Positions 13,888-61,871 of a stretch of 64,000 bases of DNA are shown here, piece by piece. The notes under the pieces were generated by a model. The model ran no database searches and was not told the DNA's origin. It saw only the letters and a list, made by a program, of their open reading frames with translations. Position numbers and translations under genes: made by a program. This DNA is from Verrucomicrobiota bacterium. GTDB taxonomy: Bacteria; Verrucomicrobiota; Verrucomicrobiia; Limisphaerales; AAA164-E04. Where the stretch lies: contig CP170459.1 of the NCBI GenBank assembly GCA_047947115.1, positions 1,760,001 to 1,824,000 of the forward strand, given 5' to 3'. The stretch's first letter is position 1; the number at the start of each line of letters is the position of its first letter.

Positions 13888-14940
13888 ATGAAACACACGC
13901 AACTCAGTAAAATGGCCATCACCCTGTTGATTGGCTCGATACTCACCTCCGTCACCCTACAAGCCGGATGGATCAAAGGCGCCAAGTATGCCTACAACGT
14001 TCTGGACGGTTTCGGTACCTGGTCCTTCTACTCTGAACTGCTTGAAAATGAAATCTTCAAACCAAATCGCGCGGAAGCCAAACTCCGTGCAAGGCCTGAT
14101 CTCTACACCTATGAAAAAACGACGACCAGTGGAGCATACCATGGAAAAGCACTCGAAGAATCCGAAGCGGGAGCATTCGGCCAAACTCATAATGTTCACA
14201 ACTACGCTGGAAATTATGCGGAATACATCATTCATTGGATCATTGTGGAGTACGATGAGGAAGATGAAGAACATTACGTGGTCAATGGGGCGGGAGGAGC
14301 CTCCAACGGTCCTCATTGGTGGTCGAAAAGCATCTGGGAAAGTTTCGTTGACTCACCTGCAGCTGCCAAAGAAAGCAGTTGGTGGGAAGCCATGATGACC
14401 GGAGACAATTGGTCACGCACAGGTTTCTGGATCACCATCGGCAGTTCCGTCAAGCTGGAATACCCTGACGTCACCATCAAGTCGGATGTCTGGAATCCTG
14501 CACCATTTGGAACCGTCCTCGACGGCCAACTCGTCAACACCGCCAAAAACTTCGGCGGGACTGGACTCAATTACACCGCAAAGGTGCATTTTGAACTGCA
14601 AAAACTAACATGGATTTCTGGCCCCAATGGCACGGGTTACTGGACTAATACAGATTGGAAAACTAATATTGCAGACAAGTTCACGCATGTTTTTCCTGGT
14701 TACCAAGATTCTTCTACAACCAAGTCGCTTTGTCCCCAAAATCATCGTATCCGGCGCGAGGAAGTCAAAGGTGGAATGGATATATGGTGGAACCAAAACA
14801 TTAGCTATTCCAATGCAACTGTTGAGACTCAGGAACTCGATGAGCAAGGCAACCGAACGGGACCAATCGAAACACATACTGGATACATACAGAAGAACAT
14901 CGATTATGTTATAGATTTCAGCACTGAATCACCAGATTGA
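13888..14940 (+). CDS. Secreted hypothetical protein (module gene A0)
   Basis: 350-aa ORF with a clear Sec signal (MKHTQLSKMAITLLIGSILTSVTLQA), Trp/Tyr-rich; 18 bp upstream of a family-B gene. Confidence 0.8.
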   Translation: MKHTQLSKMAITLLIGSILTSVTLQAGWIKGAKYAYNVLDGFGTWSFYSELLENEIFKPNRAEAKLRARPDLYTYEKTTTSGAYHGKALEESEAGAFGQTHNVHNYAGNYAEYIIHWIIVEYDEEDEEHYVVNGAGGASNGPHWWSKSIWESFVDSPAAAKESSWWEAMMTGDNWSRTGFWITIGSSVKLEYPDVTIKSDVWNPAPFGTVLDGQLVNTAKNFGGTGLNYTAKVHFELQKLTWISGPNGTGYWTNTDWKTNIADKFTHVFPGYQDSSTTKSLCPQNHRIRREEVKGGMDIWWNQNISYSNATVETQELDEQGNRTGPIETHTGYIQKNIDYVIDFSTESPD

Positions 14941-14958
14941 TCCATTATTTACACGATC

Positions 14959-16179
14959 ATGAAACGAAAACAAATTTTCCAGGTTTTGGTTTTGATTCCT
15001 CTGGCCATCCTTTGTGGTCTGATCATCAGGGATCGTAGCCCTTATTTTACCCCGATGGTTATTGACTCCTTCAGAGAGGAACCTGATATTCCCACGCCCT
15101 TGCCGCAGAAAAAGTGGAAACCCTTGTCCCAACGTCTGAGTGAGTCGGGGCTTCTAGCCGAGAAACCCGAAAAAGTTGAAGAGATCCGTTTGGCCAAATG
15201 GAAAGCAGAGTTCCCTTGGAAACCAACCCATGACCCAAAATTAGAATTCGATCCAGACCGACATTTCGAAAACCGTGCTTTGGGAAATAAGAGTAACACC
15301 GAATGGGCTACGAGGTTTAACCATACTTATTTGAAAAAGTTCTTTCAAAATGATGAGCGCTTCCTGCCTCAGTTTGAAAAGTTTTACCGGATACTGAAAG
15401 AGTATGATCGAGGCCATAACCCAGTCATGGTAGGAAGGGCATTTTGGGCTTTTAGGCATTACCATCACGCCGCCTTTGAGCGTGATCCAGATGAATACGT
15501 TCTATCAAATGGAAAAAAGGTTAGAAACGGTCTTTTTAGTTACCTGACCTGGGGAGATGAAGTTTCAGGCTATCATGAGAGTCTACGAGGATATTTAAGG
15601 GATTGGGAGTGGTTACGTCCTTCATTTGAAACGATAGAAGGTAAGTTCAATGCAAATGCGTTAATTGAAAAACTCGTGGCTGAAATTGATGGAATGGAGA
15701 CATTGCCCCTAGATGTCATGACCAGTGGAGGTCCTTTGTTAGATTCCTATCCTGATGCCGAAGCACTACTTTCCGGTGAAGAAGAACTGCTGGTTCCCTA
15801 TGCCGGTTGGAATGAGGAGAGCGAGCGCTATTGGGGGGAGCAGACGCGTCAGTTTGAAAAGAGTTACGCAGAAGGAGATCCATCCCTTAAAGCGGCCGCT
15901 CCGGAGCTTTTCCCGCCGGTGGGTGTGAAAGATGGGCAATTGGTGGACAAGGACGGCGATCCGGTGCAATGGCGGGAAGGCACCGATATCGTCCTTGTCA
16001 ATGAACGTGGCGAACGCGTCCCGGTGATCATTGAGGATGATGGAACCATCAGTCTTCCTTCGCCCGAGGACGTCGCCGTTATGCGCGAGAACGGCCAGGT
16101 TCAAAGTGCTGATTTCAATGATCTGCCTCCTGAAATGGCTGAGGCGATTTTAAAGGAAAAAGCAGCAGAGAGTCCATAG
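14959..16179 (+). CDS. Membrane-anchored hypothetical protein, family B (copy B0a)
   Basis: N-terminal TM helix; family motifs WKAEFPWKPTHDP..FDP.R, NH.YL..FF, FEKFY..L.E.DR..NP...G..F and TWGD. Confidence 0.85.
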   Translation: MKRKQIFQVLVLIPLAILCGLIIRDRSPYFTPMVIDSFREEPDIPTPLPQKKWKPLSQRLSESGLLAEKPEKVEEIRLAKWKAEFPWKPTHDPKLEFDPDRHFENRALGNKSNTEWATRFNHTYLKKFFQNDERFLPQFEKFYRILKEYDRGHNPVMVGRAFWAFRHYHHAAFERDPDEYVLSNGKKVRNGLFSYLTWGDEVSGYHESLRGYLRDWEWLRPSFETIEGKFNANALIEKLVAEIDGMETLPLDVMTSGGPLLDSYPDAEALLSGEEELLVPYAGWNEESERYWGEQTRQFEKSYAEGDPSLKAAAPELFPPVGVKDGQLVDKDGDPVQWREGTDIVLVNERGERVPVIIEDDGTISLPSPEDVAVMRENGQVQSADFNDLPPEMAEAILKEKAAESP

Positions 16180-16195
16180 ACGGTGGTGCCATATC

Positions 16196-17415
16196 ATGAA
16201 ACGGAAACGCTGCTTGCAAATCGTGGTTTTGCTACCTCTGGCCATCCTTTGTGGTCTGATCATCAGGGATCGTAGCCCTTATTTTACCCCGATGGTTATT
16301 GACTCCTTCAGAGAGGAACCTGATATTCCCACGCCCTTGCCGCAGAAAAAGTGGAAACCCTTGTCCCAACGTCTGAGTGAATCGGGGCTTCTAGCCGAGA
16401 AACCCGAAAAAGCGGAAGAGATCCGTTTGGCCAAATGGAAAGCAGAGTTCCCTTGGAAACCCACCCATGATCCCAAACTTCAATTTGATCCTATTAGGCA
16501 TTTTTCAAATCGAGCTTTGGGCAACAAAAGCAACACGGATATGGAGACAAGAATCAATCACTCATATCTGAGAAAGTTCTTTCAAAGTGATGAGCGATTC
16601 CTTCCTCAATTTGAAAAGTTTTATAGGATCATGGCCGAGCATGACAGAGGACACAACCCAGTCATGGTGGGGCGGTGTTTTTGGGCTTTCAAACATTACT
16701 ACAATGCCGCCTTTGAGCATGATGCTGAGGATTATGTTTTTGAGAATGGTGAAAAGGTGAAGAAAGGATTGTTTAGCTATTTGACTTGGGGAGATGAGGT
16801 TGAAGGATATAGGGAAAGTCTCTGTGGGTATTTACAGCATTGGGCGTGGTTAAATCCGACATTTAAAACGGATAAGGGTGAAGCGGATGCTTATTCATTA
16901 ATCAACCGTTTGGTTTCTGAAATTGATGGTATGGAGCTATTACCAATTAACGTCATGAGTGGTGAACGAATATTATGGGATGAACACCCCGATGCCCAAG
17001 AGCTTCTTTCCGGCGAAAAGGAGCTCTTGGTTCCCTATGCAGGTTGGAACGAGGAAAGTGAACGATACTGGGGGAGCAGACGCGTCAGTTTGAAAAGAGT
17101 TATGCCGAGGGAGACCCTTCCCTCAAGGCGGCCGCTCCGGAGCTTTTTCCACCGGTTGGTTTCAAAGATGGGCGATTGGTGGATAAAGATGGAGATCCTG
17201 TGCAATGGCAAGAAAGCACCGACATTGTCCTTGTCAATGAGCGTGGCGAACGCGTCCCGGTGATCATTGAGGATGATGGAACCATCAGTCTTCCTTCGCC
17301 CGAGGACGTCGCCGTTATGCGCGAGAACGGCCAGGTTCAAAGTGCTGATTTCAATGATCTGCCTCCTGAAATGGCTGAGGCAATTCTGAGGGAAAGAGCT
17401 GAAGGTGAACAATAA
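16196..17415 (+). pseudogene. Family B tandem duplicate (B0b) with -1 frameshift in a G tract
   Basis: G5 at 17070-17074 versus G6 at 15833-15838 in B0a. Adding one G gives 406 aa, the same length as B0a; ORF 17176..17415 is the displaced C-terminus. Confidence 0.85.
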
Positions 17416-17560
17416 ACAATCGATAGGGTTTCATGTTGCCTGGCATCCCTTACTTCCCCTTACCTTCCGTCAATGCGCGAAGCCTAAAGAGTTTGATCGG
17501 GGCGTCGGATCATCGATTTTGAACTTGAAGATTATCTTGGAATGTCTGGTTTAAGTAGAC

Positions 17561-17803
17561 ATGGAAGCTTCGGTTGATGATTTGAGATATCATATGAAAG
17601 ATGTACTACAGGCTTTGGGAAGGAATGAAGAAGTCAAGGTGCTCCACCGAGGGACACTCATAGGGGCCATTGTGCCTGCAAAATCAAAAAGAAAGGGTAT
17701 GCTTGTGCAAGATCATCCGCTATTTGGTTGTCAAACGAAGTCCCGGAAAACGGTGGAAGAGATCATAGACGAACTAAGAGAGCCCAGTTACCGTGATATT
17801 TGA
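17561..17803 (+). CDS. Phd/YefM-type antitoxin
   Basis: MEASVDDLRYHMKDVLQALGRNEEVKVLHRGTLIGAIVP fits the Phd fold pattern. Confidence 0.7.
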   Translation: MEASVDDLRYHMKDVLQALGRNEEVKVLHRGTLIGAIVPAKSKRKGMLVQDHPLFGCQTKSRKTVEEIIDELREPSYRDI

Positions 17804-17810
17804 TACCGAC
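17793..17810 (+). pseudogene. Remnant start of a VapC/PIN toxin (MIFDTD)
   Basis: GTG ATA TTT GAT ACC GAC overlaps the antitoxin stop; similarity to a PIN domain ends immediately afterwards. Confidence 0.45.
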
Positions 17811-17852
17811 TCATTCAAACCTGCCTTCAATTGCGGTGCTCATAAGGTGCAA

Positions 17853-17983
17853 TTTTGGACTACGGTGTGCAGCACCCCTTTGGATACGCAAGGGAAGGGT
17901 TATGGGCTCGCTTCTGCAATTTGAGCAACACCTTTGCATGCGGACAGTATCCAAAGCGATGTCGTGACCACCGCAATCCAAAA
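17853..17983 (+). repeat. REP/MITE-like element with imperfect terminal inverted repeats
   Basis: Left TTTTGGACTACGGTGTGCAGCACCCCTTTGGATAC; right (revcomp) TTTTGGATTGCGGTGGTCACGACATCGCTTTGGATAC. Confidence 0.65.
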
Positions 17984-18109
17984 AGGTGTTGGATATTCCC
18001 GGGTTGCTCGATGCTTTACCTCTGTTTTTTAACCTTTATCCTAGCGGGATCTCAGTTCTGAAAGAAATGAAGAAGTGACTATTGTTTTGATTGAAGTAAA
18101 ATCGTCTTC

Positions 18110-18475
18110 ATGGAACAGACCGTTGCCGTCATTGGAGCGAGTGACAAACCGGATCGATATGCCTACAGGGCGGCCGAGATACTGGAAGCGCATGGGCATC
18201 AGGTCGTGTTGGTGAATCCTTTCAAAGAGTTGATTAATGGAGAACCTTGCTTGAAAGATGTTTTACAGTTTGATGGCGCATTGGACACGGTGACCGTGTA
18301 TGTCAATGCCAAGCGATTCCAGGAACATCTGGCGTCCATCTTGGAAAAGAAACCCCGACGCATCATTTTTAATCCGGGAGCGGAAGCTCCCGAGGCCTAT
18401 CCGCTGATCGAAAGGGAAGGGGTTCTGGTGGAAGAGGCCTGTACTTTGGTGTTATTGAACACTGGACAGTTTTGA
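18110..18475 (+). CDS. CoA-binding protein (YccU-like)
   Basis: VAVIGASDKPDRYAY, VNP, IIFNPGAE and EACTLV. Confidence 0.9.
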   Translation: MEQTVAVIGASDKPDRYAYRAAEILEAHGHQVVLVNPFKELINGEPCLKDVLQFDGALDTVTVYVNAKRFQEHLASILEKKPRRIIFNPGAEAPEAYPLIEREGVLVEEACTLVLLNTGQF

Positions 18476-18483
18476 AGAGGTGC

Positions 18484-20169
18484 TCAGGAAACGCCTACCA
18501 GTTCGATGGAGAACTCGGTTCCTTGGCCTTCTTTGCTGACGACTGAGATGGTGCCTTTCATGGCTTTGATCAGTGATTTCGTCAACGTCAGGCCCAATCC
18601 ACTGCCTTCGATGTGGGATTGTTCCCTTTCTGCATCCAGGCGGTAGAAGGGTGAAAACAAGCGTTCGATCTTGGATTCAGGAATTCCGATCCCGGTATCT
18701 GCAATTCTTACTTTGACCCGTTTGTCCGGCAGTAGTTCGACGCTCAAAGTGAGTGAACCTTGCGGTTTGTTATACTTGATTCCGTTGGAAATCAAATTTT
18801 GGAAGACTTGGAGCAAGTAGTCATGGTGAGCCCAAACGCTTAGATTCTGGCTTGGAAGTTTCTCGACCTTAATGCCAACTTCCTTCTCACTCGCCAAAGG
18901 GTTCATGGCAGCGATCGCTTTGTCGAATACGGACGTCAACGGTATGGGTTCCAGGTGAATTTCTTTTTGGTGGTGATCAAGTTTTGAGATATTCATGACC
19001 TCATTGATCATCCGCAACAGATGCTTGCCGGAACGTTGGATTCGGTCGACATTTTCTTTGTTTTTGGGGGAAAGGTTTTCCATACCCAACAGTGTTGAAA
19101 AGCCGAGGATTCCATTGAGAGGGGTGCGTAATTCATGACTCATACGCGAGAGAAATTGGGTTTTGGCTTGGTTGGCTTCCTCTGCTTTTTTGCGGGCGGT
19201 GATGAGCAGTCTTTCCGTTTCCTTGCGTTCGCTGATATCCCGCACAAGACCGACAAAGAACCTATTGTCTTTATCTTTAAACTCTCCAAGTGCCAGTTCC
19301 ATGTCAAAGGTGGTGCCATCTTTTCGACATCCAACCACTTCACGGTATCCGCCCATAATGTGTTTGGTGCCGGTTTGGCGATACCGGTGCAGATACTGGT
19401 CATGCTGGCCCTTGTCAGGTTCGGGCATGAGCATGGAAACATTTTTGCCTATTGTCTCGCTTGACTGGTAACCAAAGATCCGTTCCGCGGCCTGATTGAA
19501 TTCCAGGATGCATCCGTAAGCATCAATGCAAACAATACCTTCGACAACATTTTCGAATATGGACTGGAACTTTTCTTCACTGGCTTTTGCCAAATTAATC
19601 GCTTCTGCGGCGATTTGATTACTCCTGGCGATGCCAACGGAGTGATTCAGGGCCAGGACGATGATTGTCAGCAGCGCCAACACAGTGCTTATCATGATCA
19701 GAATGGCGGTTCGCGTTTGTCCATAGGAAGACAATGCTTCCTGTCCATTGATTTCGGCTATTAGTCCAATTTCCAGATGCTCATCCCATTGCCAGGCGCT
19801 GAGCACACGAATACCTCTATAGTCCCTGATTCCGCTCAGGCTTTCTCCGTTTTCCTGCTTGATGACGCTTGATGCAGCCTCGGTCCAAGGCCACGCATCT
19901 CTTTGTTCGGGAAGGCTGTGTCCTTTCGGCAAAAGGGCCCCGGGATCTTTTGCTTCGAGGTTGAAAATGATCGGTTCATCAGGATCAACCAGTCCCAGGT
20001 GATGGAGATCCTCTGTGAATCGGCTGGGCGAGACGAAGCGTCCGGTTTTATCTATGGCATACGTTTCACCTGTTCGCCCCATGCGGCCGGCCTGGATGAT
20101 GCCGATAAAATCCTTATACGGATCGATGGAATAAGCCATGATTGCGACCACTTCATTTTCCGGAGTCAT
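18484..20169 (-). CDS. PAS-domain sensor histidine kinase, apparently 5'-truncated (partial Cache domain, single TM)
   Basis: H-box FLSRMSHELRTPLNG, N/G boxes (NLISNGIKYN, DTGIGI, GSGLGL) and FixL-like PAS. The frame closes near 20235 with no first TM helix. Confidence 0.8.
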   Translation of the reverse strand: MTPENEVVAIMAYSIDPYKDFIGIIQAGRMGRTGETYAIDKTGRFVSPSRFTEDLHHLGLVDPDEPIIFNLEAKDPGALLPKGHSLPEQRDAWPWTEAASSVIKQENGESLSGIRDYRGIRVLSAWQWDEHLEIGLIAEINGQEALSSYGQTRTAILIMISTVLALLTIIVLALNHSVGIARSNQIAAEAINLAKASEEKFQSIFENVVEGIVCIDAYGCILEFNQAAERIFGYQSSETIGKNVSMLMPEPDKGQHDQYLHRYRQTGTKHIMGGYREVVGCRKDGTTFDMELALGEFKDKDNRFFVGLVRDISERKETERLLITARKKAEEANQAKTQFLSRMSHELRTPLNGILGFSTLLGMENLSPKNKENVDRIQRSGKHLLRMINEVMNISKLDHHQKEIHLEPIPLTSVFDKAIAAMNPLASEKEVGIKVEKLPSQNLSVWAHHDYLLQVFQNLISNGIKYNKPQGSLTLSVELLPDKRVKVRIADTGIGIPESKIERLFSPFYRLDAEREQSHIEGSGLGLTLTKSLIKAMKGTISVVSKEGQGTEFSIELVGVS

Positions 20170-20557
20170 GATTGGAGACAGGAGAAATATGGCAGGTGCT
20201 TGCAGGGTGTGTTTTGATAGACCAGCGGCGGTTCATGTTCAAAGCTGATTCTGATATGGTTTGAAACTTGAAATGCCGCTCATTCAACAACAATGGAGAG
20301 GCCGGTTCCACACGGCTCCCAAGCATTTTCCTTGAAACCATTCCTAAGCAAAAGATGTGGAGCGAGGGAAGCTATCTGTGTGGTTAGAATTATGGCGTTT
20401 CCATGGCTTCATGAAAGCCGTATGCATGCACTGGGGATGGAAGTGGGTGTGAGGTGGAATTTACTCCTTTGACCAAGTGTGTCGGAAATCGAGCATTCTT
20501 TGCTTGGTTTCAATTTACAGGATTGTTTGTTTCAGCGATTTGTTTCAAGTTAGGCAC

Positions 20558-20917
20558 ATGTCGAAGCGATATCAAATGGTGCAGTTGGATGAGGTGGAAG
20601 CAGTGCGTTGTCCTTGTGGTTTTGCGAAACGTGCCTTTGCTTCTCCGGAGAACAAAACGGCGACCTTGCACATGGTGGATATTCAATCCGATTCCAGAAC
20701 CCATTATCATAATAAACTCACCGAGATCTATCTGGTGCTGGAAGGGGAGGGGGAAATGGAATTGGACGGCGAACGGTTTCCGGTACGCCCGATGAGTGCG
20801 GTCATGATTCAGCCCGGTTGCCGGCATCGCGCGATTGGTAAATTGAAAATCATCAACATTCCCGTCCCGGCATTTGATCCGGAAGACGAATGGTTTGATG
20901 ATGAAAATGAGTCATAG
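20558..20917 (+). CDS. Cupin domain protein
   Basis: HYHNKLTEIYLVLEGEG and IQPGCRHRAIG cupin motifs. Confidence 0.88.
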   Translation: MSKRYQMVQLDEVEAVRCPCGFAKRAFASPENKTATLHMVDIQSDSRTHYHNKLTEIYLVLEGEGEMELDGERFPVRPMSAVMIQPGCRHRAIGKLKIINIPVPAFDPEDEWFDDENES

Positions 20918-20938
20918 TTCTTGATACAATTTGCATTC

Positions 20939-21652
20939 ATGAAAAACGGAATCTTTTTAACGCTGGCGATCTGTCTGGCTTCTTTCATGTTCCCGGTTCA
21001 TGCACAGGAAACAGGACACGCCAAGGAAGCAGTCACCGGGACCTGGAGCTGGACGACACGTCAGAGTAATGGGGAATTGTATTCCAGTGTCATGGACATT
21101 GAACTCAATGATGCTGGCAATTTGGCTGGAGCACTTCGGCATGCGTCAGGGGACAGGATTGCATTTGAATCGGTCCACTGGTCGGACAGCACCATCAAGT
21201 TTCTATTATCTTATGAAGTTCTTGGTCATCCATTTCAGGCAGAATACGAAGGGAGACTGACAAAGGACGCCTTGGAAGGGATTGTTCGAATAAAGTTTGT
21301 TGAGCGTACGATTGAGCGGAGCTGGAAGGCTGTTCGTGTTCAAGATTACCCTCTGGATGGTGAGTGGGATTGGAAGCTCCAAACGCCGGATGGGAACGAA
21401 CTCAAAGCAGTGTTGCGCATTCATCACACCAAAGATGGCGTGGGAGGAAGGCTGGTCTCGGATCAGTTTGATTCGGAACTCAACAATGCGAGATTCTCTC
21501 AAGGGGTGTTGCAATTCACGACCACCAGTCAGGATGGCAACACGACCTATGCCTCCAAAGGCAAGTGGCACGGCAATCGTCTTGTGGGTGAAGTGGGATC
21601 CCCTTCGTTTGGTGATGATTTGAAACTGACGTGGGAAGCTGTGAAACGGTGA
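20939..21652 (+). CDS. Secreted protein with two internal beta-rich (lipocalin-like) repeats
   Basis: Signal peptide; repeats VTGTWSW...WKAVR and LDGEWDW...WEAVKR. Confidence 0.75.
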   Translation: MKNGIFLTLAICLASFMFPVHAQETGHAKEAVTGTWSWTTRQSNGELYSSVMDIELNDAGNLAGALRHASGDRIAFESVHWSDSTIKFLLSYEVLGHPFQAEYEGRLTKDALEGIVRIKFVERTIERSWKAVRVQDYPLDGEWDWKLQTPDGNELKAVLRIHHTKDGVGGRLVSDQFDSELNNARFSQGVLQFTTTSQDGNTTYASKGKWHGNRLVGEVGSPSFGDDLKLTWEAVKR

Positions 21653-52054: not shown

Positions 52055-52085
52055 TCTCACACAAAGACTCCAAGCCGCGAAGGAA
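52055..52085 (+). repeat. CACACAAAG-family palindromic repeat, left arm only
   Basis: CTCACACAAAGACTCCAAGCCGCGAAGGAA, 29/30 identical to 55752-55781. Confidence 0.8.
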
Positions 52086-52200
52086 GCGGAAAGTGACATG
52101 ATTACAAGCCCCTATTGTTGGGAATAAAACAACAGGTCAGGGTTCCAGTAATGGAGGTTATCGCATACTTGCGCATCTCATTTTGGCTTGATGAGTTGAG

Positions 52201-53136
52201 TCAGCGAATCAATAACTTATCTCCTGGTTTTAAGGCTTTTTCTGCACTGTCATGATAGGCGAAGGCCCCGATATCACCATTTGGTAAGTGGATAATAGGT
52301 TGCATCTTCACAAAGTTTTCGGACGGTATTTCATTGATGAGCCGGTCTCTGAAGGCGCGCGCCACATCGGCATCCAACAGTTCCTTGTTTGGCCAATACA
52401 TCGAACGGACGAGCAAACCCACAATGGCATCATGATAGCTTTTAGCTTGGTCGCCCCAAGTGGTTTTGCCGTCAATCGGTACAAGAACGGGAACCATTTT
52501 ACCTGGCGGATCGGATTCGTTCGTGGAAGGTACATATGTCTTCTTTGAATAGAGTGCATTTTGATCCTTCCGTTTGCATTGGTGATAGCATCTAAGATTT
52601 GAGAAGATATCTCCAGTGATCATCGGGTTTTCTGCTCGGTCGATTTCCTTTAGCATATGATAGAGTTGCTCAAATTCGGCGGTATAGATTTGAGGGTTGT
52701 TGTAAAATGCGACCATGTATCCATGATTTTTAACCGCTGTTTCCATTTCTGGATCTCCGGTGAAGGTTGCAGGATTGTTCGGATCGTACCTCGAAGGATC
52801 ATATTTGAGCGTCTGATGATAGGTTGGTTCGTAAGGAAAATTGGCTTTCCAATTTTCCAAACGCTGTTTTTCGGTAGCTTCCTCGACATTTTGCTTTTCA
52901 AGTGCTCTTGCTTCTTGCTCCTGTAGTCTTCGGTATATGGCAATGCCATTACGTGCATCGATGGATGTCTTGTTGTTAAACGAAGGATTGTTGGATTGCT
53001 CTTTCGACCATTCATTCTTGTTGTTGAAGTCTAGCCTTGTTTTCGGTTCAGGATCCTTTGGCCAAAAATAAACGAACAGGATAACCAGAAAAGCGAGAAC
53101 ACCGAGAGCAGCTTGCTTCTTATTTAAATTTTTCAT
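52201..53136 (-). CDS. Membrane-anchored hypothetical protein, family B (B1)
   Basis: TM anchor; WKANFPYEPTYH..LKYDPSRY, VKNHGYM, FEQLYHML.EIDRAENP, TWGD and LKPGDKLLIR. Confidence 0.88.
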   Translation of the reverse strand: MKNLNKKQAALGVLAFLVILFVYFWPKDPEPKTRLDFNNKNEWSKEQSNNPSFNNKTSIDARNGIAIYRRLQEQEARALEKQNVEEATEKQRLENWKANFPYEPTYHQTLKYDPSRYDPNNPATFTGDPEMETAVKNHGYMVAFYNNPQIYTAEFEQLYHMLKEIDRAENPMITGDIFSNLRCYHQCKRKDQNALYSKKTYVPSTNESDPPGKMVPVLVPIDGKTTWGDQAKSYHDAIVGLLVRSMYWPNKELLDADVARAFRDRLINEIPSENFVKMQPIIHLPNGDIGAFAYHDSAEKALKPGDKLLIR

Positions 53137-53237
53137 GAAAAATTTCTTTCAGTAATAATTTTAACACTTGCCAGATTAAAAAGTGCCGTAATCAAGATCA
53201 TATTCATAAACCACCCATTGGTGTTCGTTGATAAGGG

Positions 53238-54708
53238 GAACGGTGTCAAAAGAGTGAAGCCAAATTTGCCGCCTGAAACCGGGTTCCTGCGATGTGTTTC
53301 AGTTGTCTGATTCGGTTCTTTTCAAGGGTTTCAAAATGATTAAAATGCTCTAAAACAGAGAATTTAGCCGGTTTTTGTGCGATTAAAGTTGACTCTAGCG
53401 CTCTGACCCCAAAAAATTTTCATGCCAAGAGCTCTATTAACTGATAATAAGATATTTACAGCATTCTTCAAGCCTTTATTTGACGCCTTGAATCGAGCTG
53501 TTCACACTCGCCAATGTAATGAATTACCCGACCAGCATTGGCTTGAATTAGGAGTCACCCGAATTCTTATGGAATCCCCCAGCGGCCGGGGGTTTCTCCA
53601 GCAATACGGCCCCCACTTTCAGAGTGATATTTCTGTGGGGCTTTATTTCGAATCTCTCAAAAGTAACCGACGCCTCCTTCTTGCCGATGAATTAAATGAT
53701 AGTATTTGCGCTAAAGCAGCCAAAGAACTTAATGACCCTCTTCAGGATTTTGAGGAACTAAAAAAATATGACATCTATGCCGCTGATGGCCATTGGCATG
53801 GTGCTTCGGCTCATGAAGTACGCAAGAATGAAAAGAAATGGGCTCCCGGTTACTTCTACGCCCTGAATCTGAGATCCCATGCAATCAAGTTGCTGGATAC
53901 AGCCGATGAGGTTCATCGTAAGCATGAGCATGACATGCGAGCCCTCAAAAGGATGGGTATCGAAACACTCAGGCAGGGTGCCAAGACGGGACGCAAAGTT
54001 CTCTATGTGTATGACTCTGCGTCCATCGATTTCAATGAGTGGGATTGGTGGAAATCACGAGGTGGAATTTATTTCGTTTCCCGCATGAAAGACGGAACTG
54101 CCTATGAATGTCTGGATGAACTGGAAGTCGATCATGAAAATGGTATCAATCACGGAATCACGTCCGATGAAAAAATCATAGTCAATAACCAGAGCATTCT
54201 TCGACGAATCGTATGTGTCGATCCGCAAACTGGGAAGGAACACGTTTTGATCACCAACCAATTGACGATTTCGCCAGGTTTGTTAGCACAGCTCTATCGG
54301 ATGCGTTGGGATATTGAGAAGGTATTCGATGAGTTTAAAAATACACTTCAGGAGAAAAAGGCATGGGCCGGATCAGTCCGGGCCAAGAAGATTCAAGCCA
54401 ACTTTCTTTGCCTGGCACATAACCTCTGTCTCTTGATGGAGCATGATTTGGAAAAGGATTACGGAGTGAGCAACGAAGCAGAAATTCGTCGACGTCAAAT
54501 TCGCTTTGAAGCAATGAAAAACGCTGCCAAAGAAGCCGGGAGAAAATGGTCAACGGTGTACGAATGCGTCCAGCGCTACTCCAAGCGAAGCGTAAAGTTT
54601 ATCCGGTGCTTGAGATCATTTTTCTTTTTAGAAAAGCCCCTAATTGACATGGCGGCTCATCTCATCCGTTTATATGCGAAGTTATGATTGACTTTTTTGA
54701 CACCGTTC
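53238..54708 (+). mobile_element. Complete IS4-family insertion sequence
   Basis: IRs GAACGGTGTCAAAA(G/A)AGT (17/18). 8-bp TSD GATAAGGG at 53230-53237 and 54709-54716. Confidence 0.93.
53422..54687 (+). CDS. IS4-family DDE transposase
   Basis: AADG, VYDSA, FVSRMK and the Y-2-R-3-E-6-K motif YRMRWDIEKVFDEFK. Confidence 0.9.
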   Translation: MPRALLTDNKIFTAFFKPLFDALNRAVHTRQCNELPDQHWLELGVTRILMESPSGRGFLQQYGPHFQSDISVGLYFESLKSNRRLLLADELNDSICAKAAKELNDPLQDFEELKKYDIYAADGHWHGASAHEVRKNEKKWAPGYFYALNLRSHAIKLLDTADEVHRKHEHDMRALKRMGIETLRQGAKTGRKVLYVYDSASIDFNEWDWWKSRGGIYFVSRMKDGTAYECLDELEVDHENGINHGITSDEKIIVNNQSILRRIVCVDPQTGKEHVLITNQLTISPGLLAQLYRMRWDIEKVFDEFKNTLQEKKAWAGSVRAKKIQANFLCLAHNLCLLMEHDLEKDYGVSNEAEIRRRQIRFEAMKNAAKEAGRKWSTVYECVQRYSKRSVKFIRCLRSFFFLEKPLIDMAAHLIRLYAKL

Positions 54709-55678
54709 GATAAGGGTGTCTATAAGTTCTTTCGGATTGTGCATTGCCAGGGATGTCCAGTTGAGGAGGTTGCTATTTGGCCATTGAGCTTTCCATTTAC
54801 GTTTGCATGTACCATGTGCGCTGGGACCTGAAATAATTTCGGTGTTTTCAGGAAGTAGGTCAACATTGGTGACCTTGTCTGCCTGGATTTTGCTGACTTG
54901 AACCACTCTTCTTGTTTCCTTGCTTCTTTCAACGCTCGTGAGTCCTTCAGCCAACGTATAATCCAGATCTGCAAGTTTGTATCTTATTTCGAGAGCAAAA
55001 TCTCCTTGTAGATTTCTGAGGCCTTCACCTCCGTTGTTTGAATAGTTTGAAAAGATGACATATTTGGCGTCCCAGAATTTGATGGTTCCCGTTCCGATCC
55101 AGGTTTCATCATCATTGACCACCGTAACAATTCCTTTTCCCGCGACTTGTGATCGAGTGATGATTTTTCCCGATTCATCGATATTGTAGACATGCCAGTG
55201 GTGATACGAAAATTCACGATCAAGGAGTTCAAATCCTCCGTTTGCGTGTTCTTCTCCTCGCAGGTGGTTTTGTTGATAGGTCTGTTGGTAGCCAGAAAAC
55301 TCATCCGCATACCAGTTGGCGTTGACCGAATTGCCATAATCCATCCAAACGGCACCGGCGCTGGCAATGGATTCCCCTTCACGTGTAACCATGCGTTCGG
55401 CGGCGTCCATGACCGCGCCGTCAATGCCTTCGATGACTTTCCCCATGATGTAGTCTCCTGCTTTGATCAGGACATCGTAAAGATCTGCCTTTGCTGTCAT
55501 ATGAGTTAAAAATAAGCAGGTGGCTAAAATGAATGTTTTTCCTGCTTTAGGGTAAACTCCTGATTGCTTTCTCATCTTCTTTTCCTTTTTTGATTTGTTC
55601 CTTCTTCACTTGAGACCATTGTGATGGATTAATTTTACTGGGTGAGGGAGGGAATGCAAAAGAGGATGCTTTTTGGGA

Positions 55679-55715
55679 GTGATTTTTTGGGAGTAATTAG
55701 ATGTCGCGTTTTGGT
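55679..55715 (-). promoter_or_regulatory. Candidate regulator site upstream of A1
   Basis: Coding strand ACCAAAACGCGACATCTAATTACTCCCAAAAAATCAC; variants at 62140-62174 and 62402-62439. Confidence 0.45.
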
Positions 55716-55751
55716 GATGGCTATTACTGAAATAATCTTGTGGTTGATATG

Positions 55752-55827
55752 CTCACACAAAGACTCCAAGCCACGAAGGAAACCGTTCTTGGAAAGCAAA
55801 AAATTCGTGTTCTTCGAGGCTTAGTGT
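55752..55827. repeat. CACACAAAG-family palindromic repeat
   Basis: Left arm CTCACACAAAGACTCCAAGCCACGAAG; degenerate right arm TTCGTGTTCTTCGAGGCTTAGTGT. Confidence 0.75.
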
Positions 55828-55832
55828 TTGGT

Positions 55833-57002
55833 TTATTTGGTTTCTTCTCCAAATCTCCATTGAAAGGGGCTCAGTGTATCTGGGGTGGTATTCTCGGTGA
55901 GTGCTCTGGATAGCACTTCTCCGATGCCTGCTGAATGTTTGAAACCGTGTCCCGAGCAGGGTGAGGCGATCCATACTTTATTGTTTTCGGGGTGGTGATC
56001 GATGAGGAATCCGAAGTCCGGTGTGACCGTGTATTGGCAGGCTACAGAACGAATGCACTTTGCCCTGATGCGCAGGTGGGAGCTGGCGGATTCGAACATT
56101 GTTTGTGTTTCTTCACTGGTAACCGTTTGGTTCAGAAGATCAGGATTGCATGGTATATCAAATTGTTCGCCGGCAATTTTGAGCCCTTTGCCGGAACCGC
56201 CCAACTCAGGGAATCCGTAAAACATGGAATGAGTGGCATCCGGTACCCGGATGTAAATGGGCATGTTTTCGGGAGTGAACATGTCTTTCGGTCCATCGGT
56301 TTGGAACCAATGTAACAACTGTCGGTAAGTGCGGGTGACGGGTTGCCATTCCGGGACTAGTTTGCCGATCCATGGTCCGGCTGTAAGGACGATGCGTTCA
56401 GTCCGGTACGTACATTGATCTGTCTTTATGCAAAATCCCTCTCCATTCTTTCTCGATGAGTGAAATGATTCGTTAAAGCGAATGCCTGCCCCCAGAATCC
56501 TTGCCTGGTCCAACTGGGCTTGAATGCAGGCCTCGGGGCGTACATAGCCGGCTTCAGGTTCGTAATATCCGGATTCACCTGAGTGAAACTTGAATTGAGG
56601 AAATCGCTCCGACATTTCATCCGTGGTCAGACGTTCATGTTGAATCTGATGTTTGGCGGCAACTTCGCATGTTGTCTTCAGAAAATCTTCAGCACCATGT
56701 GCCGCCTTGCGGCCGTTTGAGCCCGCAAAGATCAGGCCTCCGACTTGGTGCAGTAACGAACTGCCGGTGGCGGATTCCAACTCCCGCCAGATTTCGTGGG
56801 ATCGTTTGACCAGCGGGACATAGGCCTCGTCTTCTCCCAAGGCCAGGCGGGTAATGCGTGTTTCACCGTGGGAAGAGCCACGGTTGTGCGGTGGCTGAAA
56901 TTGATCAATGCCCAAAGCATGCACTCCCGCTTTCGCCAACTGGTAAAGAGTGGCGCTACCCATGGCACCAAGACCGATCACGACAACTTCCGGAGATCGC
57001 AT
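55833..57002 (-). CDS. solA: N-methyl-L-tryptophan oxidase / monomeric sarcosine oxidase family
   Basis: VIGLGAMGSA, GSSHGETRITR, CQYTVTPD and CSGHGFKHS. Confidence 0.9.
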   Translation of the reverse strand: MRSPEVVVIGLGAMGSATLYQLAKAGVHALGIDQFQPPHNRGSSHGETRITRLALGEDEAYVPLVKRSHEIWRELESATGSSLLHQVGGLIFAGSNGRKAAHGAEDFLKTTCEVAAKHQIQHERLTTDEMSERFPQFKFHSGESGYYEPEAGYVRPEACIQAQLDQARILGAGIRFNESFHSSRKNGEGFCIKTDQCTYRTERIVLTAGPWIGKLVPEWQPVTRTYRQLLHWFQTDGPKDMFTPENMPIYIRVPDATHSMFYGFPELGGSGKGLKIAGEQFDIPCNPDLLNQTVTSEETQTMFESASSHLRIRAKCIRSVACQYTVTPDFGFLIDHHPENNKVWIASPCSGHGFKHSAGIGEVLSRALTENTTPDTLSPFQWRFGEETK

Positions 57003-57016
57003 AGGTGTGGCAGGAA

Positions 57017-58003
57017 TTAATCGGATAAGGCTCCCGTGCAACTGCTACCAGCCCCGGCGCAGCAGGCCAGGCAATGGTTTCCCGTCTGAATGTCGATCTT
57101 CATCCATGTCTCCGGATCAATGTCCCAAAGATAGAGAGGTTTGCCATTTCTCAGTTGCATGTTGAGCATTTGATTGAAATCACAATCATATACTTCGCCC
57201 AGGTATCCAACGCTGATCGTACTGCGGCACATCAGGCCGGTTACAGTCGCCGGGTTGAAAGACTGCACCAACAAGTCCATGTAAGCTTCGAGTTGGCCAC
57301 TGGTTTTCAAATCTTCAGCAAAGCGGGCGATGGGTTGGTTGGTGATGGTGAATAGTTGGTCGAATACGATTCCGAATTCCTTCTTGAGAGCTTCTTTGTA
57401 ATCTTGTTCCAGTTCGGCTTGTGGTCCGGGTAATTTGGGGCCGAGCGGATTGTAAACCAGATTCAGTTTGAGTGTCCCCGATCCGTAGCCGGCACGGTTC
57501 AATTTTTGGAGACCGCGAATGCTCTTTTCAAAAACGCCATGGCCTCGTTGTTTGGAGACATTGTCGGCGGTGTAACAGGGCAAGGAGGCGATGACTTCGA
57601 CTTCATGGTCAGCCAGGAATTGATCCAAATCTTCAAAGCCGGGTTCTTCCAGGATGGTCAAATTGTTGCGATCCATGACGTGGCATCCCGCTTCTTTGGA
57701 TGCTTTGACCAATGGACGAAAGAATTCGCTTAGTTCGGGCGCACCTCCCGTGATATCGACCTTGGCGGGGCGATACTGGTCAATCCAGTGAGAGATCTTT
57801 TCGAAGGTAACGGCATCGATGGTTTCCGTCCGCCACGGGGCGGCGTCCACATGACAATGTCGACAGGCCTGATTGCATTGGCGACCGACATTGATTTGCA
57901 ATGTGTTCAACTGTCCCCTCTGCAAATGAATCTCATGCGCCGCCAATTTATGTTCAAACTGATTCATGGTAACCAGAGCGACCATACACGGAGCATATTC
58001 CAA
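57017..58003 (-). CDS. Radical SAM / Cys-rich DUF3641 protein (ArsS-like)
   Basis: CNQACRHC, DITGGAPE, SLPCY, YDCDFNQML and C-terminal HCLACCAGAGSSCTG. Confidence 0.88.
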   Translation of the reverse strand: MEYAPCMVALVTMNQFEHKLAAHEIHLQRGQLNTLQINVGRQCNQACRHCHVDAAPWRTETIDAVTFEKISHWIDQYRPAKVDITGGAPELSEFFRPLVKASKEAGCHVMDRNNLTILEEPGFEDLDQFLADHEVEVIASLPCYTADNVSKQRGHGVFEKSIRGLQKLNRAGYGSGTLKLNLVYNPLGPKLPGPQAELEQDYKEALKKEFGIVFDQLFTITNQPIARFAEDLKTSGQLEAYMDLLVQSFNPATVTGLMCRSTISVGYLGEVYDCDFNQMLNMQLRNGKPLYLWDIDPETWMKIDIQTGNHCLACCAGAGSSCTGALSD

Positions 58004-58049
58004 AAGCGATGGTTTTTGAGAAGGAATCGTATGTGTAGGTATGATATTT

Positions 58050-58142
58050 TCTCACACGAAGCCACTCAGACACGAAGGCTTTTTTATTATGCCAAATGTT
58101 TCCTTCCGTTAAATCCTAGTGGCTTCGTGTCATTGTGTGAGA
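58050..58142. repeat. CACACAAAG-family palindromic repeat
   Basis: TCTCACACGAAGCCACTCAGACACGAAGG...CCTAGTGGCTTCGTGTCATTGTGTGAGA, ending 5 bp from the B2 stop. Confidence 0.8.
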
Positions 58143-58147
58143 TCATT

Positions 58148-59071
58148 TCAGCGGTAGAGTAGCTGGTCACCTGATTTTAATGCTTTCTCAGCATCGTCAT
58201 AGTAGCCGAATGCACCGATCTGACCGTTGGGGAGTTCCACTACATCCCTCATTTCGAAGAGATTATCTGATGGGATTTCGTCCAGGAAACGGTCTCTAAT
58301 CGTTCTTGCCGTTTCCGCGCTCATTTCTTCCTTATTCGGCCAGCATTTTTTCAAGGCAAGTAATCCAACAATAGAATCCCTGTATCCTTCCATCTTGTCG
58401 CCCCATGTCGTTTTTCCATCAATGGGAACACGAGCCTCTGTCATTCCTTGCGACGATTCATTCATGGTATCGTTTTGAACAAGGCCTGGTCGGGACCACA
58501 GATCTGTAGGGGCGAAGCGTTGGCTTTTGTAGTAGTGAATCAGCATGTTGAAAATACGCCCTGTCATAATGGGATTGTCTGCCCGATCCACTTCTTCCAG
58601 CATGTGATATAACTGTTCGAACTCGGAGCTATAGATGTTTGGGTTATTGTAAAAAGCCACCAGAAATCCATGATTCTTCACCGCTGTTTCCATCTCGAGA
58701 CCACCGTGGAAGGTTGAAGGATTACCCGGATCATACCTCGTTGGATCATAAGTTAATGTGGGGTGATGGGGCGGCTGGTAAGGAAAGTTTTCCTCCCAAC
58801 GTTGTCTCCGTAATGCTTCAGCCTCCTCTGCTTTTGTTTTGTCCTCCTTTTTTTCCTGCATTTGTCTGTGTGATTCTATATTCGCGTTCAGGTTAGCCAA
58901 AGCAGGTAGCGGTGTGGTCGACCGAGTGGCGGGAATTTCTTGCGCTTCAGGTTCCAGGTTTGGTTTGGAAACGGTTTGGCGGTTTGTTGTGCTCTGACGG
59001 AACAAAATACAAACCGCCAATGCCAAAAGCGCCAACCCTGTTTTCATTCGTTTGAGCTTGGATTTGTTCAT
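58148..59071 (-). CDS. Membrane-anchored hypothetical protein, family B (B2)
   Basis: Same motifs as B1 (WEENFPYQP, VKNHGFL, FEQLYHML, TWGD, LKSGDQLLYR). Confidence 0.88.
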   Translation of the reverse strand: MNKSKLKRMKTGLALLALAVCILFRQSTTNRQTVSKPNLEPEAQEIPATRSTTPLPALANLNANIESHRQMQEKKEDKTKAEEAEALRRQRWEENFPYQPPHHPTLTYDPTRYDPGNPSTFHGGLEMETAVKNHGFLVAFYNNPNIYSSEFEQLYHMLEEVDRADNPIMTGRIFNMLIHYYKSQRFAPTDLWSRPGLVQNDTMNESSQGMTEARVPIDGKTTWGDKMEGYRDSIVGLLALKKCWPNKEEMSAETARTIRDRFLDEIPSDNLFEMRDVVELPNGQIGAFGYYDDAEKALKSGDQLLYR

Positions 59072-59109
59072 GATCGTTTACATGTTCTATTTACGATTTG
59101 TTTTGAAGC

Positions 59110-59880
59110 TCAATTCCATCCGTAATCGACTTGGTATTCGTACATGCCCCACTCGCTTTCACTGATCACTGCGTCAAAGAATCCTTCCCGATCAAAAAGT
59201 ATCATTCTTGCCCATTCCTCCACGCTGTAATTGGGCATGTTGCGTTTATAAACACGTTTGCACTTTCCGTATGCGGCGGGACCTTCAAAGATTTCGGTGT
59301 CATTTTCCAGAGGGTCGACATTTGTGACATTCTCAGCTTGTATTTTACTCACTCTGACATAGCGATAGTCCTCCCTAGCGCGTTCAGAGCTTGTTAATCC
59401 GTATTCGGCTGAGTAATCCAAATCAGCCAGTCTGTATTCAATTTTGGGGTTGAAATCACCCCCGGGGCGTCTGAGTAATTCTCCTCCCGTGTTTGAGTAG
59501 TTGGAGCTGATAACTTAACTGGTGTCCCAATGCTTGACCGTTCTTGAGCCGATCCATGTGTCCTCACTATTGACAACCACCACAAATCCGGTTCCAGCTA
59601 TGAGCTCCTGATTTTGTAATAGCAGGGGATCTTCCAGGGTTCCTAAACCTTCCTCATCCCATACCTCCCAGTCATGATAGGAAAAGTTTCTGTCAAGAAG
59701 CTTGAAGCTACCGTTGATGTGCTCCTCCCCCTAGAGATGGTTTTGTTGGATGGTTTGGTGGTAGTTGCCGAACTCATCGGCATACCAATACGCTTCCAGA
59801 GCAGTGCCATAATCCATCCAGATGGCACTCGCACTTTCACTGGATTCGCCGTCGCGAGTGATGAATCCTTTGATTTAATT
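59110..59880 (-). pseudogene. Family A copy A2: 5'-truncated with in-frame stops
   Basis: Collinear with A3 from N*IKGFITRDGES onward. Stops at 59877-59875 (TAA), 59733-59731 (TAG, CAG in A3) and 59517-59515 (TAA, TAT in A3); no signal peptide region. Confidence 0.88.
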
Positions 59881-59980
59881 CTATCAGGTCTTGGGGACTG
59901 CAAATTTACCTCCCGTCGTTTACTGGACGTATACTGTCGGTTGTGTTGTTACGTTCATCTATGAAGCTTTTTTCATTGTG

Positions 59981-60916
59981 TCAGCGGTAGAGCAGTTGAT
60001 CGCCTGGTTTGAGGTTTCTCATGGTTTGGCCAACGTATCCAAATGTTCCGATTTGGCCGTTTTGCAATTCAACAACATCCTGCATCTTGATCAGGCTTTC
60101 AGATGGGATTTCCTCGATCAGTCTGTCTCTGAAGGCCCGAGCAGTATCTGGAGTTATTTGTTCCTTGTCAGGCCAATATTTGTCTAACACCAATAACCCC
60201 ACAATACCGTTTCGATAAGTTTCCGCCCGCTCCCCCCAGGTTCTTTTTCCATCTGGTGTCAATCGCAACTCTTTCAAGGAGCCAAGTTCATTGGGAGCTG
60301 TAGCATTAGATTCGTATTTCATTTTTTTAAGCAAGGCGTTTGAATCGTTTAGACAGCTTTTGTGATAATGGATCAATAGATTGAAAATTTTTCCTGTGAT
60401 GATGGGCTGATCAGCTCGGTCAATGCTTTCCAGCATTTGATAAAGCTGTTGAAATTCGGCGCTGTAGATTTGGGGGTTATTGTAAAAAGCAACCAGATAG
60501 CTGTGGTTTTTTACAGCCATCTCCATTTCTGGATCATTTCTAAAGGTTGCAGGATTGTTTGCGTCATAGCGAGTAGGGTCATGCGTAAGTGTAGGATGAA
60601 AAGTTGGTTTGTATGGGAAATCCTTTATCCAATGTTCCTTTCGTAGATTTTCCTCATCCGTTTCTCTTTGCACAGCAAGGCTGTTCTCGATCTCCTGTTC
60701 CCTTGCCTTGCGATGACGTTCGATGCTTGAGTGTAAATTTGCAAGTGCGGGCAAGGCAGTTTCTGAAGAGTTTGTAAGTTGGGGGAATTCTTTTGGATTA
60801 CTGTCTTCTATGGCTGCTTCTTTGTTGGTGTTGGAACGTTGGAGAAATACCAGTAAGCCTGTTACAGCAACAAGGACTAAAGCAATGGCTGCTCTCCTGA
60901 TCTTTGGATCATTCAT
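59981..60916 (-). CDS. Membrane-anchored hypothetical protein, family B (B3)
   Basis: Same motifs (WIKDFPYKPTFH, VKNHSYL, TWGE, LKPGDQLLYR). Confidence 0.88.
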   Translation of the reverse strand: MNDPKIRRAAIALVLVAVTGLLVFLQRSNTNKEAAIEDSNPKEFPQLTNSSETALPALANLHSSIERHRKAREQEIENSLAVQRETDEENLRKEHWIKDFPYKPTFHPTLTHDPTRYDANNPATFRNDPEMEMAVKNHSYLVAFYNNPQIYSAEFQQLYQMLESIDRADQPIITGKIFNLLIHYHKSCLNDSNALLKKMKYESNATAPNELGSLKELRLTPDGKRTWGERAETYRNGIVGLLVLDKYWPDKEQITPDTARAFRDRLIEEIPSESLIKMQDVVELQNGQIGTFGYVGQTMRNLKPGDQLLYR

Positions 60917-60953
60917 GATATTTTCGTTTTGAATTGTTTGGTTTTAGAAGATG

Positions 60954-61871
60954 CTATTCCCATCCATAGTCGATCTGGTGTTCGTAGAATCCCCATTTCG
61001 TTTCATTAAGCACCACGTCGAAAAATCTCTCCTGATCCAGAAAAATCATTCCAGCCCACTCTTTGGCAGAATAATTGGGTAGTATGCGTTTATAGACGCG
61101 TTTGCATTTTCCGTATGCGACGGGTCCTTCCACCATTTCAGTCCCATATGGCAACAAATCTATGTTTGAGACTTTGTCGGGCTGCACTTTGCTGACCCTT
61201 TCTACATGCCACCCATAATCATCGCGTTCGCTGCTCACCAAGCCGTGGTTTTTCGAGTAGTCCAGATCGGCCAATCTGTATTCAATTTTGATGTTGAAAT
61301 CACCCCCGGGGCGTCTGAGTAGTTCTCCTCCTGTGTTTGAGTAGTCCGACTTGATAACATAGCTGGCGTCCCAATGCTTGACGGTACCTGAGCCGATCCA
61401 TGTGTCCTCATTGTTGACAATCACAACAAATCCGTTTCCGGCAATTCGCTCGTAATTCTGTAATAGCAGAGGGTCTTCCAATGTCCCTAAACCTTCCTCA
61501 TCCCATACCTCCCAGTCATGATAGGAAAAATTTCTGTCAAGAAGCTCGAATCCCCCATTGATATGCTCTTCGCCCTGGAGATGGTTTTGCTGGATGGTTT
61601 GATGATAGTTGCCGAACTCATCGGCATACCAGTATGCTTCGATGGCAGTGCCATAATCCATCCAGACGGAGCCCGCGCTGGCGATGGACTCGCCGTCGCG
61701 AGTAACAAAGCCTTTTAATTCATTCACAAACGCCCCTTCGATCACACCTGCTATTCGGTTTAAAATGTAACCGGGTAGTGATGCGTGTGCCTGGTTATTT
61801 CATGCAAAAAGCAGCATGAAGACGGTTAGTAATTTTCCTGTAGCGATTCGGTTGCCTGATTTTTTATTCAT
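60954..61871 (-). pseudogene. Family A copy A3 with in-frame TGA in the signal peptide (codon 24)
   Basis: ATG at 61871 after AAGGA: MNKKSGNRIATGKLLTVFMLLFA*NNQAHASLPGYILNRIAGVIEGAF..., TGA at 61802-61800. The rest of the frame is intact. Confidence 0.8.

Follow-up and report, generated by a model that had tools for sequence, protein, structure and literature searches.

A 64,000-nucleotide stretch of a Verrucomicrobiota bacterium genome (the window; G000:C1:1760001-1824000, where G000 is the genome holding the window, G001 and higher numbers are its relatives and L numbers denote collected loci) carries repeated pairs of genes, in which the gene for a protein with a Sec-type signal, A, stands directly ahead of the gene for a predicted membrane-anchored partner, B. 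A and B are an undescribed pair of protein families that follow a known logic, and comparison of cognate pairs shows that the two are inherited as a unit. The explanation that we favour, and hold with about even confidence, is that A is a secreted membrane-active antibacterial toxin and B a tethered immunity and perhaps holdase partner that binds A in the periplasm.

Five B genes lie in the window: B0a (14959..16179) and B0b (16196..17415) on the forward strand, and B1 (52201..53136), B2 (58148..59071) and B3 (59981..60916) on the reverse strand. An earlier reading of the window from its letters alone (the sequence-only reading) had taken them to be homologous, and their mutual BLASTP E values of 1e-18 to 1e-176 agree, as does an alignment in which every proposed motif is seen (W..xFP[WY].P, DP.R, NH.[YF], F..[FL]Y...E.DR..xP...G..F, TWG[DE] and L..EI). 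It had also placed an A reading frame 18-40 bp upstream at each locus, which holds for A0, A1, A2 and A3, with gaps of 18 (A0-B0a), 39 (A1-B1), 38 (A2-B2) and 37 bp (A3-B3); B0b is preceded by B0a and not by an A gene. A0 (13888..14940, forward strand) is intact and encodes 350 amino acids (aa) with a signal peptide, a Gly-rich hydrophobic mature N-terminus and a beta-rich elongated body. B0a (406 aa) comprises an N-terminal membrane anchor, a linker, a helical domain and a C-terminal extension, while the second tandem gene, B0b, is 77% identical to it over 295 aa and has a frameshift near 17070, its open reading frame (ORF) ending at 17263 in the present assembly. On the reverse strand, A1 is broken in this assembly: a 1,471-bp insertion sequence (IS; 53238..54708, forward strand) close to the 3' end, with terminal inverted repeats, an 8-bp target duplication and a DDE_Tnp_1 transposase at 53422-54687, divides it into a 5' part at 54709..55575 and a 3' piece past the IS at 53176..53237. 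A2 (59110..59874) is a remnant from which about 150 nt are missing at the 5' end and which carries two in-frame stops, and A3 (60954..61871) has a stop at codon 24 in the present assembly. B1 (311 aa), B2 (307 aa) and B3 (311 aa) are all intact.

For a wider comparison we collected 130 B genes from 103 sources, a few of them near-identical duplicates; the loci were picked around the best B matches, a choice that biases integrity counts, and no family-wide pseudogene rate is claimed from them. Directly upstream of these genes (within 400 bp) stood an A gene in 88 cases, a B gene in 11 and neither in 31, these last being fragments, IS-split or other genes; viewed from the other side, 90 of the 96 A ORFs of at least 150 aa are followed by B. 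Among 77 distinct ORFs of at least 200 aa upstream of B, 71 sort into four A classes of 25, 19, 14 and 13 members. Profile comparison by hhalign linked classes II and III (98.6%), II and IV (98.8%), I and III (97.1%) and I and IV (93.4%), with 18.6% between III and IV. The class III proteins A1-A3 had been called clear homologues, in keeping with identities of 46-75%. A0, a member of class IV, had been considered only distantly similar to them; there is indeed no BLASTP link and the III-IV value is low, but A0 and A1-A3 belong to one superfamily because their classes both link to the intermediate class II. A fifth divergent A class (92% by hhalign to class III) occurs with B at L259 (G030), L179 and L189, with TRAP-transporter-like genes directly downstream in all three.

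When A class was mapped onto a quick IQ-TREE tree of 71 cognate B proteins it changed three times, the minimum for four classes, as against a mean of 38.1 changes for shuffled classes, with none of 200 shuffles as low as three. Pairwise identities in the two families are correlated (Mantel rho 0.47, 0 of 500 permutations), 45 of 69 proteins have the same nearest neighbour in both, and A diverges faster than B. This shows that A and B are inherited as a unit and, with their adjacency kept in other genomes, upholds the earlier proposal of a lineage-specific polymorphic module.

Surplus B genes, truncated A genes and replaced alleles recur at A-B sites. By hidden Markov model (HMM), G000 holds 13 B domains against seven A genes or fragments, at 505 kb, at 895-903 kb, in the window and at 5.51 Mb, and up to five divergent B domains are strung behind one A. 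The tandem B copies of the 895-903 kb array are only 35-54% identical, and a truncated A fragment, A4', precedes one of them, B4b. Between G000 and G001, the head A of this array is 42% and the first B 52% identical, the last B is common to both (64%), and the flanks share 81-90% DNA identity. The array is the second of class IV (L001; G000:C1:895124-902643) and reads A4, B4a, a hybrid ORF in which a B-like anchor is fused to a C-terminal fragment of A, B4b, a 778-aa ORF with two fused B domains, and B4e; it lies directly 3' of a gene resembling, by eye, a GspE/PilB-type ATPase. At 5.51 Mb (G000:C1:5512699-5515674) a secreted 256-aa protein precedes three short anchored B-like genes, two found by HMM and one by eye; this protein was considered as an A homologue, and with hhalign values of at most 3.6% homology was not shown.

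The 58-62 kb site of the window holds a single A-B unit in G001. The 5' 600 nt of the G001 A gene match A3 best (77-94%), while its 3' 300 nt match A2 best (76-79% versus 61-68%), the 3' third of A2 being in turn nearest to the G001 gene; the B gene of the unit matches B2 best and is its orthologue. From these alignments we infer that the common 5' part acquired a new 3' third of A behind it, together with B3, and that A2-B2 was thereby pushed downstream. The A1-B1 unit is bounded by a 31-bp imperfect direct repeat (left copy 52056..52086, right copy 55752..55782), and one contig joins both copies, leaving out the entire unit. Two further degenerate copies of the repeat occur elsewhere in the genome, and it could serve as an attachment site or be a repeat of the dispersed kind. 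A contig from run X16 joins the end of B0b (window 17399) to the start of another B0-like gene (14987), a junction that suggests a longer B string in another strain. New units appear to arise mainly by duplication or transfer of the whole unit, and occasionally by a swap of the 3' third of A together with B.

Leaders are shared beyond the A family. At 14 loci the same extended leader begins A proteins of classes I and II, and three genomes hold 23-27 matches to it each; of its 30 best loci, 23 are A, and five more encode secreted proteins that are helical and rich in Cys and Gly, as judged by eye. At L300, L304, L289, L295 and L296 (in G013, G016 and G017) the A leader stands on such helical, Cys-paired, Gly-rich secreted proteins, encoded singly or in pairs; behind several of them an anchored partner without relation to B is encoded, and they fall in no Pfam family. 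These proteins and their anchored partners are candidates for further toxin-partner families. Other pairs of a secreted protein and an anchored helical partner are interleaved with A-B units at L103:2227-6313, L026:316-2256 and L042:4797-6934, where the partners, without a Pfam match, are presumably akin to Lif-like repeats. As to export, secretins were found in all five genomes searched, with 4-10 matches per genome, while VipB (PF05943), a marker of type VI secretion, was found in none of the five (90-96% complete). Because of the signal peptides, the secretin matches and the missing VipB in these genomes, A would be expected to leave the cell by Sec and then by a type II system.

We favour toxin and immunity because of the surplus of divergent B genes, the 5'-less A remnants that retain a B of their own, the replacement of alleles at fixed sites and the toxin-like company in which the pair is found. 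The conserved pairing and co-diversification of A and B, the mobility of the unit (left out of one strain's contig, carried on a plasmid-like contig in another family) and the secretins also count in its favour. The earlier proposal had left toxin-immunity and cargo-chaperone side by side; genome organisation leans toward the former, and the topology of B fits both. In the mechanism that we propose, A would pass the inner membrane via Sec and lose its signal peptide, whereupon B, on its flexible linker, would bind A in the periplasm, mask its hydrophobic N-segment and perhaps also aid its folding. A would then exit through the type II secretin system. On a related cell without the matching B, the beta body would dock and the N-segment insert into a membrane, and extra divergent B copies would protect a cell against the A alleles of its relatives.

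The A proteins are about 300-350 aa long, and the signal peptide has an [AVST]xA cleavage motif in 46 of 64. The mature N-terminal segment is Gly/Ala-rich and exceeds every other 32-mer in hydrophobicity in 63 of 77 A proteins, which we count toward membrane activity. For A1 and A3 it had been described as an amphipathic-looking helix, but it is hydrophobic more than amphipathic: the 100-degree hydrophobic moment exceeded the 95th percentile of controls in only 12% of the 77 sequences, which showed no beta periodicity and were not unusually amphipathic. The A0 model (predicted local distance difference test score, pLDDT, 88.5) is nearly all beta and elongated, with strands of up to 25 residues, and its first 30 residues, of low confidence, form a hydrophobic extension adjoining the C-terminal strands. 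In our reading of the alignment, Gly, aromatic and small residues make up most of the conserved positions, and a catalytic set is not evident. Foldseek searches of the A model against PDB and BFVD gave no match at E<=0.001; the top rows, weak ones, were the aerolysin-type proteins Dln1 and lamprey immune protein (best E 3.9e-3 with a template modelling score, TM, of 0.12, for Dln1). The best VIA matches (Z 3.8 and 4.0 over about 65-97 residues) cover an immunoglobulin (Ig)-like sandwich part, rows resembling cytolysin domain 2 were weak (Z 2.5-3.6), and aerolysin-type proteins were not among the 50 VIA entries listed. A PDB sequence search with the A profile returned 0 matches. These fold searches used unsplit models, and a missing match is no proof of a new fold.

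The long strands of the elongated model, and the hydrophobic extension that is predicted to lie beside its C-terminal strands, would also suit a variable surface fibre or oligomer whose subunit is A, joined through that extension in a donor-strand or pilin-like manner, with B as an anchored assembly chaperone and polymorphism serving kin recognition or evasion of phages or predators; the 5'-less A copies could then be likened to silent cassettes. A pilin or fimbrial fold was not among the matches listed, however, no transporter, usher or peptidase gene recurs within 3 kb of A-B, and it would be unusual for a fibre to have dozens of variants in one genome that are unlinked and accompanied each by a B of its own. 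We regard this explanation as unlikely.

B is predicted to be a membrane-anchored, periplasm-facing protein. Net positive charge precedes the hydrophobic helix in 92 of 108 proteins, none has a lipobox, only one has an AxA motif and the linker has a median length of 63 aa; because of the charge, the missing lipobox and the single AxA motif, B would be a single-pass anchor with its domain outside. The model of the B0a domain is mostly helical (pLDDT 94.5). Foldseek found nothing for it at E<=0.001 and VIA gave a best Z of 5.7, with no foldase structure matched; a PDB sequence search with the B profile gave three chance matches only (E about 0.5). The profile found 67 proteins among 7,998 candidates scored, all of them hypothetical or unnamed and none with a Pfam family. 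In Pfam and NCBIfam, neither A nor B belongs to a family: best matches are scattered over 1-4 of 103-128 members at E 8e-4 or weaker, plus one weak match to FlgF far under the cut-off, and the ESM Atlas gave no usable match for either. The earlier view that both proteins lack a known domain thus stands, no characterised family or fold having been matched in sequence and structure searches.

Several results weigh against toxin and immunity. Purifying selection on A is of the ordinary kind (dN/dS 0.10-0.15, with 0.09-0.11 for the neighbours), and over A and B together the values (0.09-0.21) resemble those of the neighbours; the orphan B2, in turn, shows no purifying signal within the species, with 5 synonymous versus 15 non-synonymous changes in two comparisons. 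Family-wide, B tracks the C-terminal third of A no better than the N-terminal third, class II being the exception, and only 3 of 581 within-class pairs look mosaic, all three keeping the N-terminal and changing the C-terminal third; the idea of a family-wide C-terminal swap in A was dropped. A matched no toxin fold, its best rows being those to Dln1 and to the Ig-like part given above. Congruent A and B trees would also be expected from strict linkage alone. Inter-protein mutual information between A and B, underpowered and uninformative at 45 pairs, showed no excess, with 26 of 30 within-class shuffles at or above the observed value. Nor can the broken A genes be called upon freely. The IS in A1 is absent from contigs of two of four runs compared, three of four differ at the codon-24 stop of A3 and two of four at the B0b frameshift, so that these breaks are strain-specific or assembly errors; those of A1 and A3 are therefore not evidence of B outliving A. 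A2 is broken in metagenome locus L235 as well, but it has only two stops, and the statistical argument that B outlives a broken A was dropped.

A further point against toxin and immunity is the layout of B itself: anchor, variable linker and helical domain are exactly those of the Lif foldases, as far as described in the part of PMC13381987 consulted. A could accordingly be a non-toxic secreted or surface protein, such as an adhesin, binding protein or host-interaction factor, and B its dedicated steric foldase of a new class, with the extra B copies being duplication debris or serving paralogous A proteins. This would fit the topology of LipH, which the same part of PMC13381987 places in one operon with its client and in type II secretion, as well as the presence of secretins, the purifying selection on both proteins, the Ig-like part of A and a natural in-frame A-B fusion at L140:2835-5225 (G011), a single 797-aa ORF. 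Such a foldase would, however, have had no counterpart among the structures matched by the B model, would offer little reason why as many as five B domains, divergent from one another, should follow a single A, or why A remnants without a 5' end should have a B after them, and would leave unexplained the leader common to A and the helical Gly-rich proteins. We consider it doubtful but the main rival; the foldase and toxin-immunity readings are not mutually exclusive, and the topology of B fits the two equally.

The pair is characteristic of one family of Verrucomicrobiota. B0a was matched in 17 of 21 other genomes of the same family and in one of 39 genomes from other families of the order, and the B profile matched one of 400 sampled genomes of the phylum (at most six candidates scored per genome). 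The A profile of classes II-IV matched 15 of the 21 family genomes and, among 1.84 billion representatives, 143 proteins only, two of the nine inspected being spurious repeats. A pattern scan of 185,579 genomes found 71 loci, nearly all titled Limisphaerales or Verrucomicrobiota, with one Opitutales and one Lentisphaeria; the homologues carry the labels Verrucomicrobia subdivision 3, Limisphaerales or Verrucomicrobiota. The Lentisphaeria-titled pair is counted once with a pair on G130:C2 because their scores are identical. G130:C2 (L255-L258), from another family, is a 76-kb, in part duplicated, plasmid-like contig with A-B pairs of classes II, III and IV, three A classes lying inside 13 kb; labelled by eye, its genes include ParB-like, resolvase-like, terminase-like, IS and CRISPR-associated ones. 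A phage origin of A-B was set aside, as none of 214 pattern matches in viral contigs was confirmed. Most family genomes have 1-7 B matches, with 14 in G015, 23 in G014, 35 in G009, 55 in G017, 70 in G013 and 81 in G016, match numbers that are not copy numbers.

That the largest B expansions are limited to a few genomes of one genus would suit a membrane-active protein directed against eukaryotes, either protist grazers or a host, with B only shielding A during export, and so would the weak top Foldseek rows to Dln1 and lamprey immune protein. In those rows, however, TM is 0.12-0.13, and neither protein appears in the 50 VIA entries listed; the metagenome runs with the A0-B0 stretch come from marsh, estuary and seawater (14 rows with at least half of the words), which locates the organism of the window there; and strings of orphan B genes are hard to explain without attack by relatives. 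A eukaryotic target seems to us unlikely. In its broadest form, the antibacterial explanation would make A a new fold of membrane-inserting toxin and B a new class of tethered steric chaperone that doubles as immunity protein, and the radiation of the pair in one Verrucomicrobiota family, to dozens of cognate pairs in a genome, would have built one of the largest arsenals for antagonism by Sec export, itself part of a broader set of secreted toxins that are marked by leaders and have anchored partners of their own; we put this forward only tentatively.

Elsewhere in the window, a 299-aa extracytoplasmic function (ECF) sigma factor with a hydrophobic C-terminal extension and then a 618-aa protein without a Pfam or NCBIfam match are encoded at 10499-13276, divergent from A0, and an ISL3-family transposase lies at 4706-5965. 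Contigs from three RNA-library runs cover A0 and B0 in part, and their neighbours too, a coverage that is not read as transcription.

Among known systems, A-B is organised like the polymorphic toxin-immunity loci of the Sec- and type II-exported type, as presented in the part of Zhang et al. 2012 (PMC3482391) drawn on here. Both have a signal peptide and a gene in the toxin position closely followed by a partner gene, which for A-B is seen in the 88 of 130 upstream genes, the congruent tree and the cleavage motif. Both have truncated cassettes with a partner behind a full gene, and here A2-B2, A4' before B4b, the B strings and the 13 B domains against seven A genes or fragments provide the truncated cassettes and the surplus or orphan partners. 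Replacement of a 3' part that brings a new partner and leaders common to different bodies are likewise shared with that account; for a constant N-terminal part with an exchangeable C-terminal tip, one clear case in the window and the shared leaders stand against the missing family-wide bias and the mere 3 mosaic pairs of 581. Unlike the loci described there, A-B has neither a separate conserved trafficking domain nor a toxin or immunity domain that is already known, mature A forms one homologous superfamily over its whole length, and diversification is mostly by whole-unit duplication.

With the Lif systems, for which we compare LipA-LipH as covered in the consulted part of PMC13381987, A-B shares a putative secreted client encoded in one operon with its partner, a partner that begins with a membrane helix and continues with a variable linker and a helical domain in the periplasm, and type II secretins. 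It differs in that A matches no lipase or protease and B no Lif sequence or fold (the Pfam, NCBIfam and PDB sequence searches were negative and the A model is nearly all beta), that B occurs in divergent tandem strings and that the pair reaches dozens of copies per genome. The glycine-zipper toxins, CdzC/D-CdzI of Caulobacter (PMC5380434, in part) and EsxX-ExiA-D of S. aureus (PMC12744356, in part), resemble A-B in a Gly/Ala-rich hydrophobic segment and an inner-membrane partner, and orphan partner genes are common to A-B and the EsxX system as described in the latter source. According to the same excerpts, however, the Cdz toxins are peptides of about 85 aa (5-10 kDa) that leave by type I secretion, and EsxX is a substrate of type VII secretion, whereas A has about 300 aa, a large beta body, a Sec signal and no recurring transporter, and B would cross the membrane once and carry a large soluble domain. 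Partner genes in strings, non-identical and varying in number between strains, are also reported in the consulted part of PMC9484751 for the immunity genes esaG, tsaI and tipC, which are Gram-positive, belong to type VII secretion and encode unrelated proteins. A is like the aerolysin-type beta pore-forming toxins (Dln1, lamprey immune protein, Cry51, epsilon toxin) in being predicted to be secreted, of about 300 aa and elongated and beta-rich in its model, and unlike them in TM values of 0.07-0.13, in their absence from the 50 VIA entries shown (best Z 4.0) and in a hydrophobic segment that is N-terminal and without beta periodicity; the weak Foldseek rows may hint at their core fold with an internal beta-hairpin stem. 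An assignment to type VI effectors and their immunity proteins finds no VipB in the five genomes searched.

We found no description of the A-B pair in a literature whose supplements and most subscription journals lie outside our coverage. The module is a strictly paired and heavily expanded one of an uncultured marine lineage, made of two families that have confident models but for which the searches detected no relatives in sequence or fold. If it is toxin and immunity, it would provide a new membrane-active toxin fold and, in genomes in which the type VI marker was not seen, a way to interbacterial conflict through Sec and type II secretion; if it is client and foldase, B would be a new class beside the only two steric foldase classes, for lipases and proteases, named in the consulted part of PMC13381987. 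On either reading, the four classes with their 71 natural cognate pairs would allow specificity to be probed directly in E. coli, with natural genes that are intact. Taken together, these comparisons place A-B in no named family tested and suggest, by analogy, a system with the workings of a polymorphic toxin-immunity locus and the build of a client-foldase operon.

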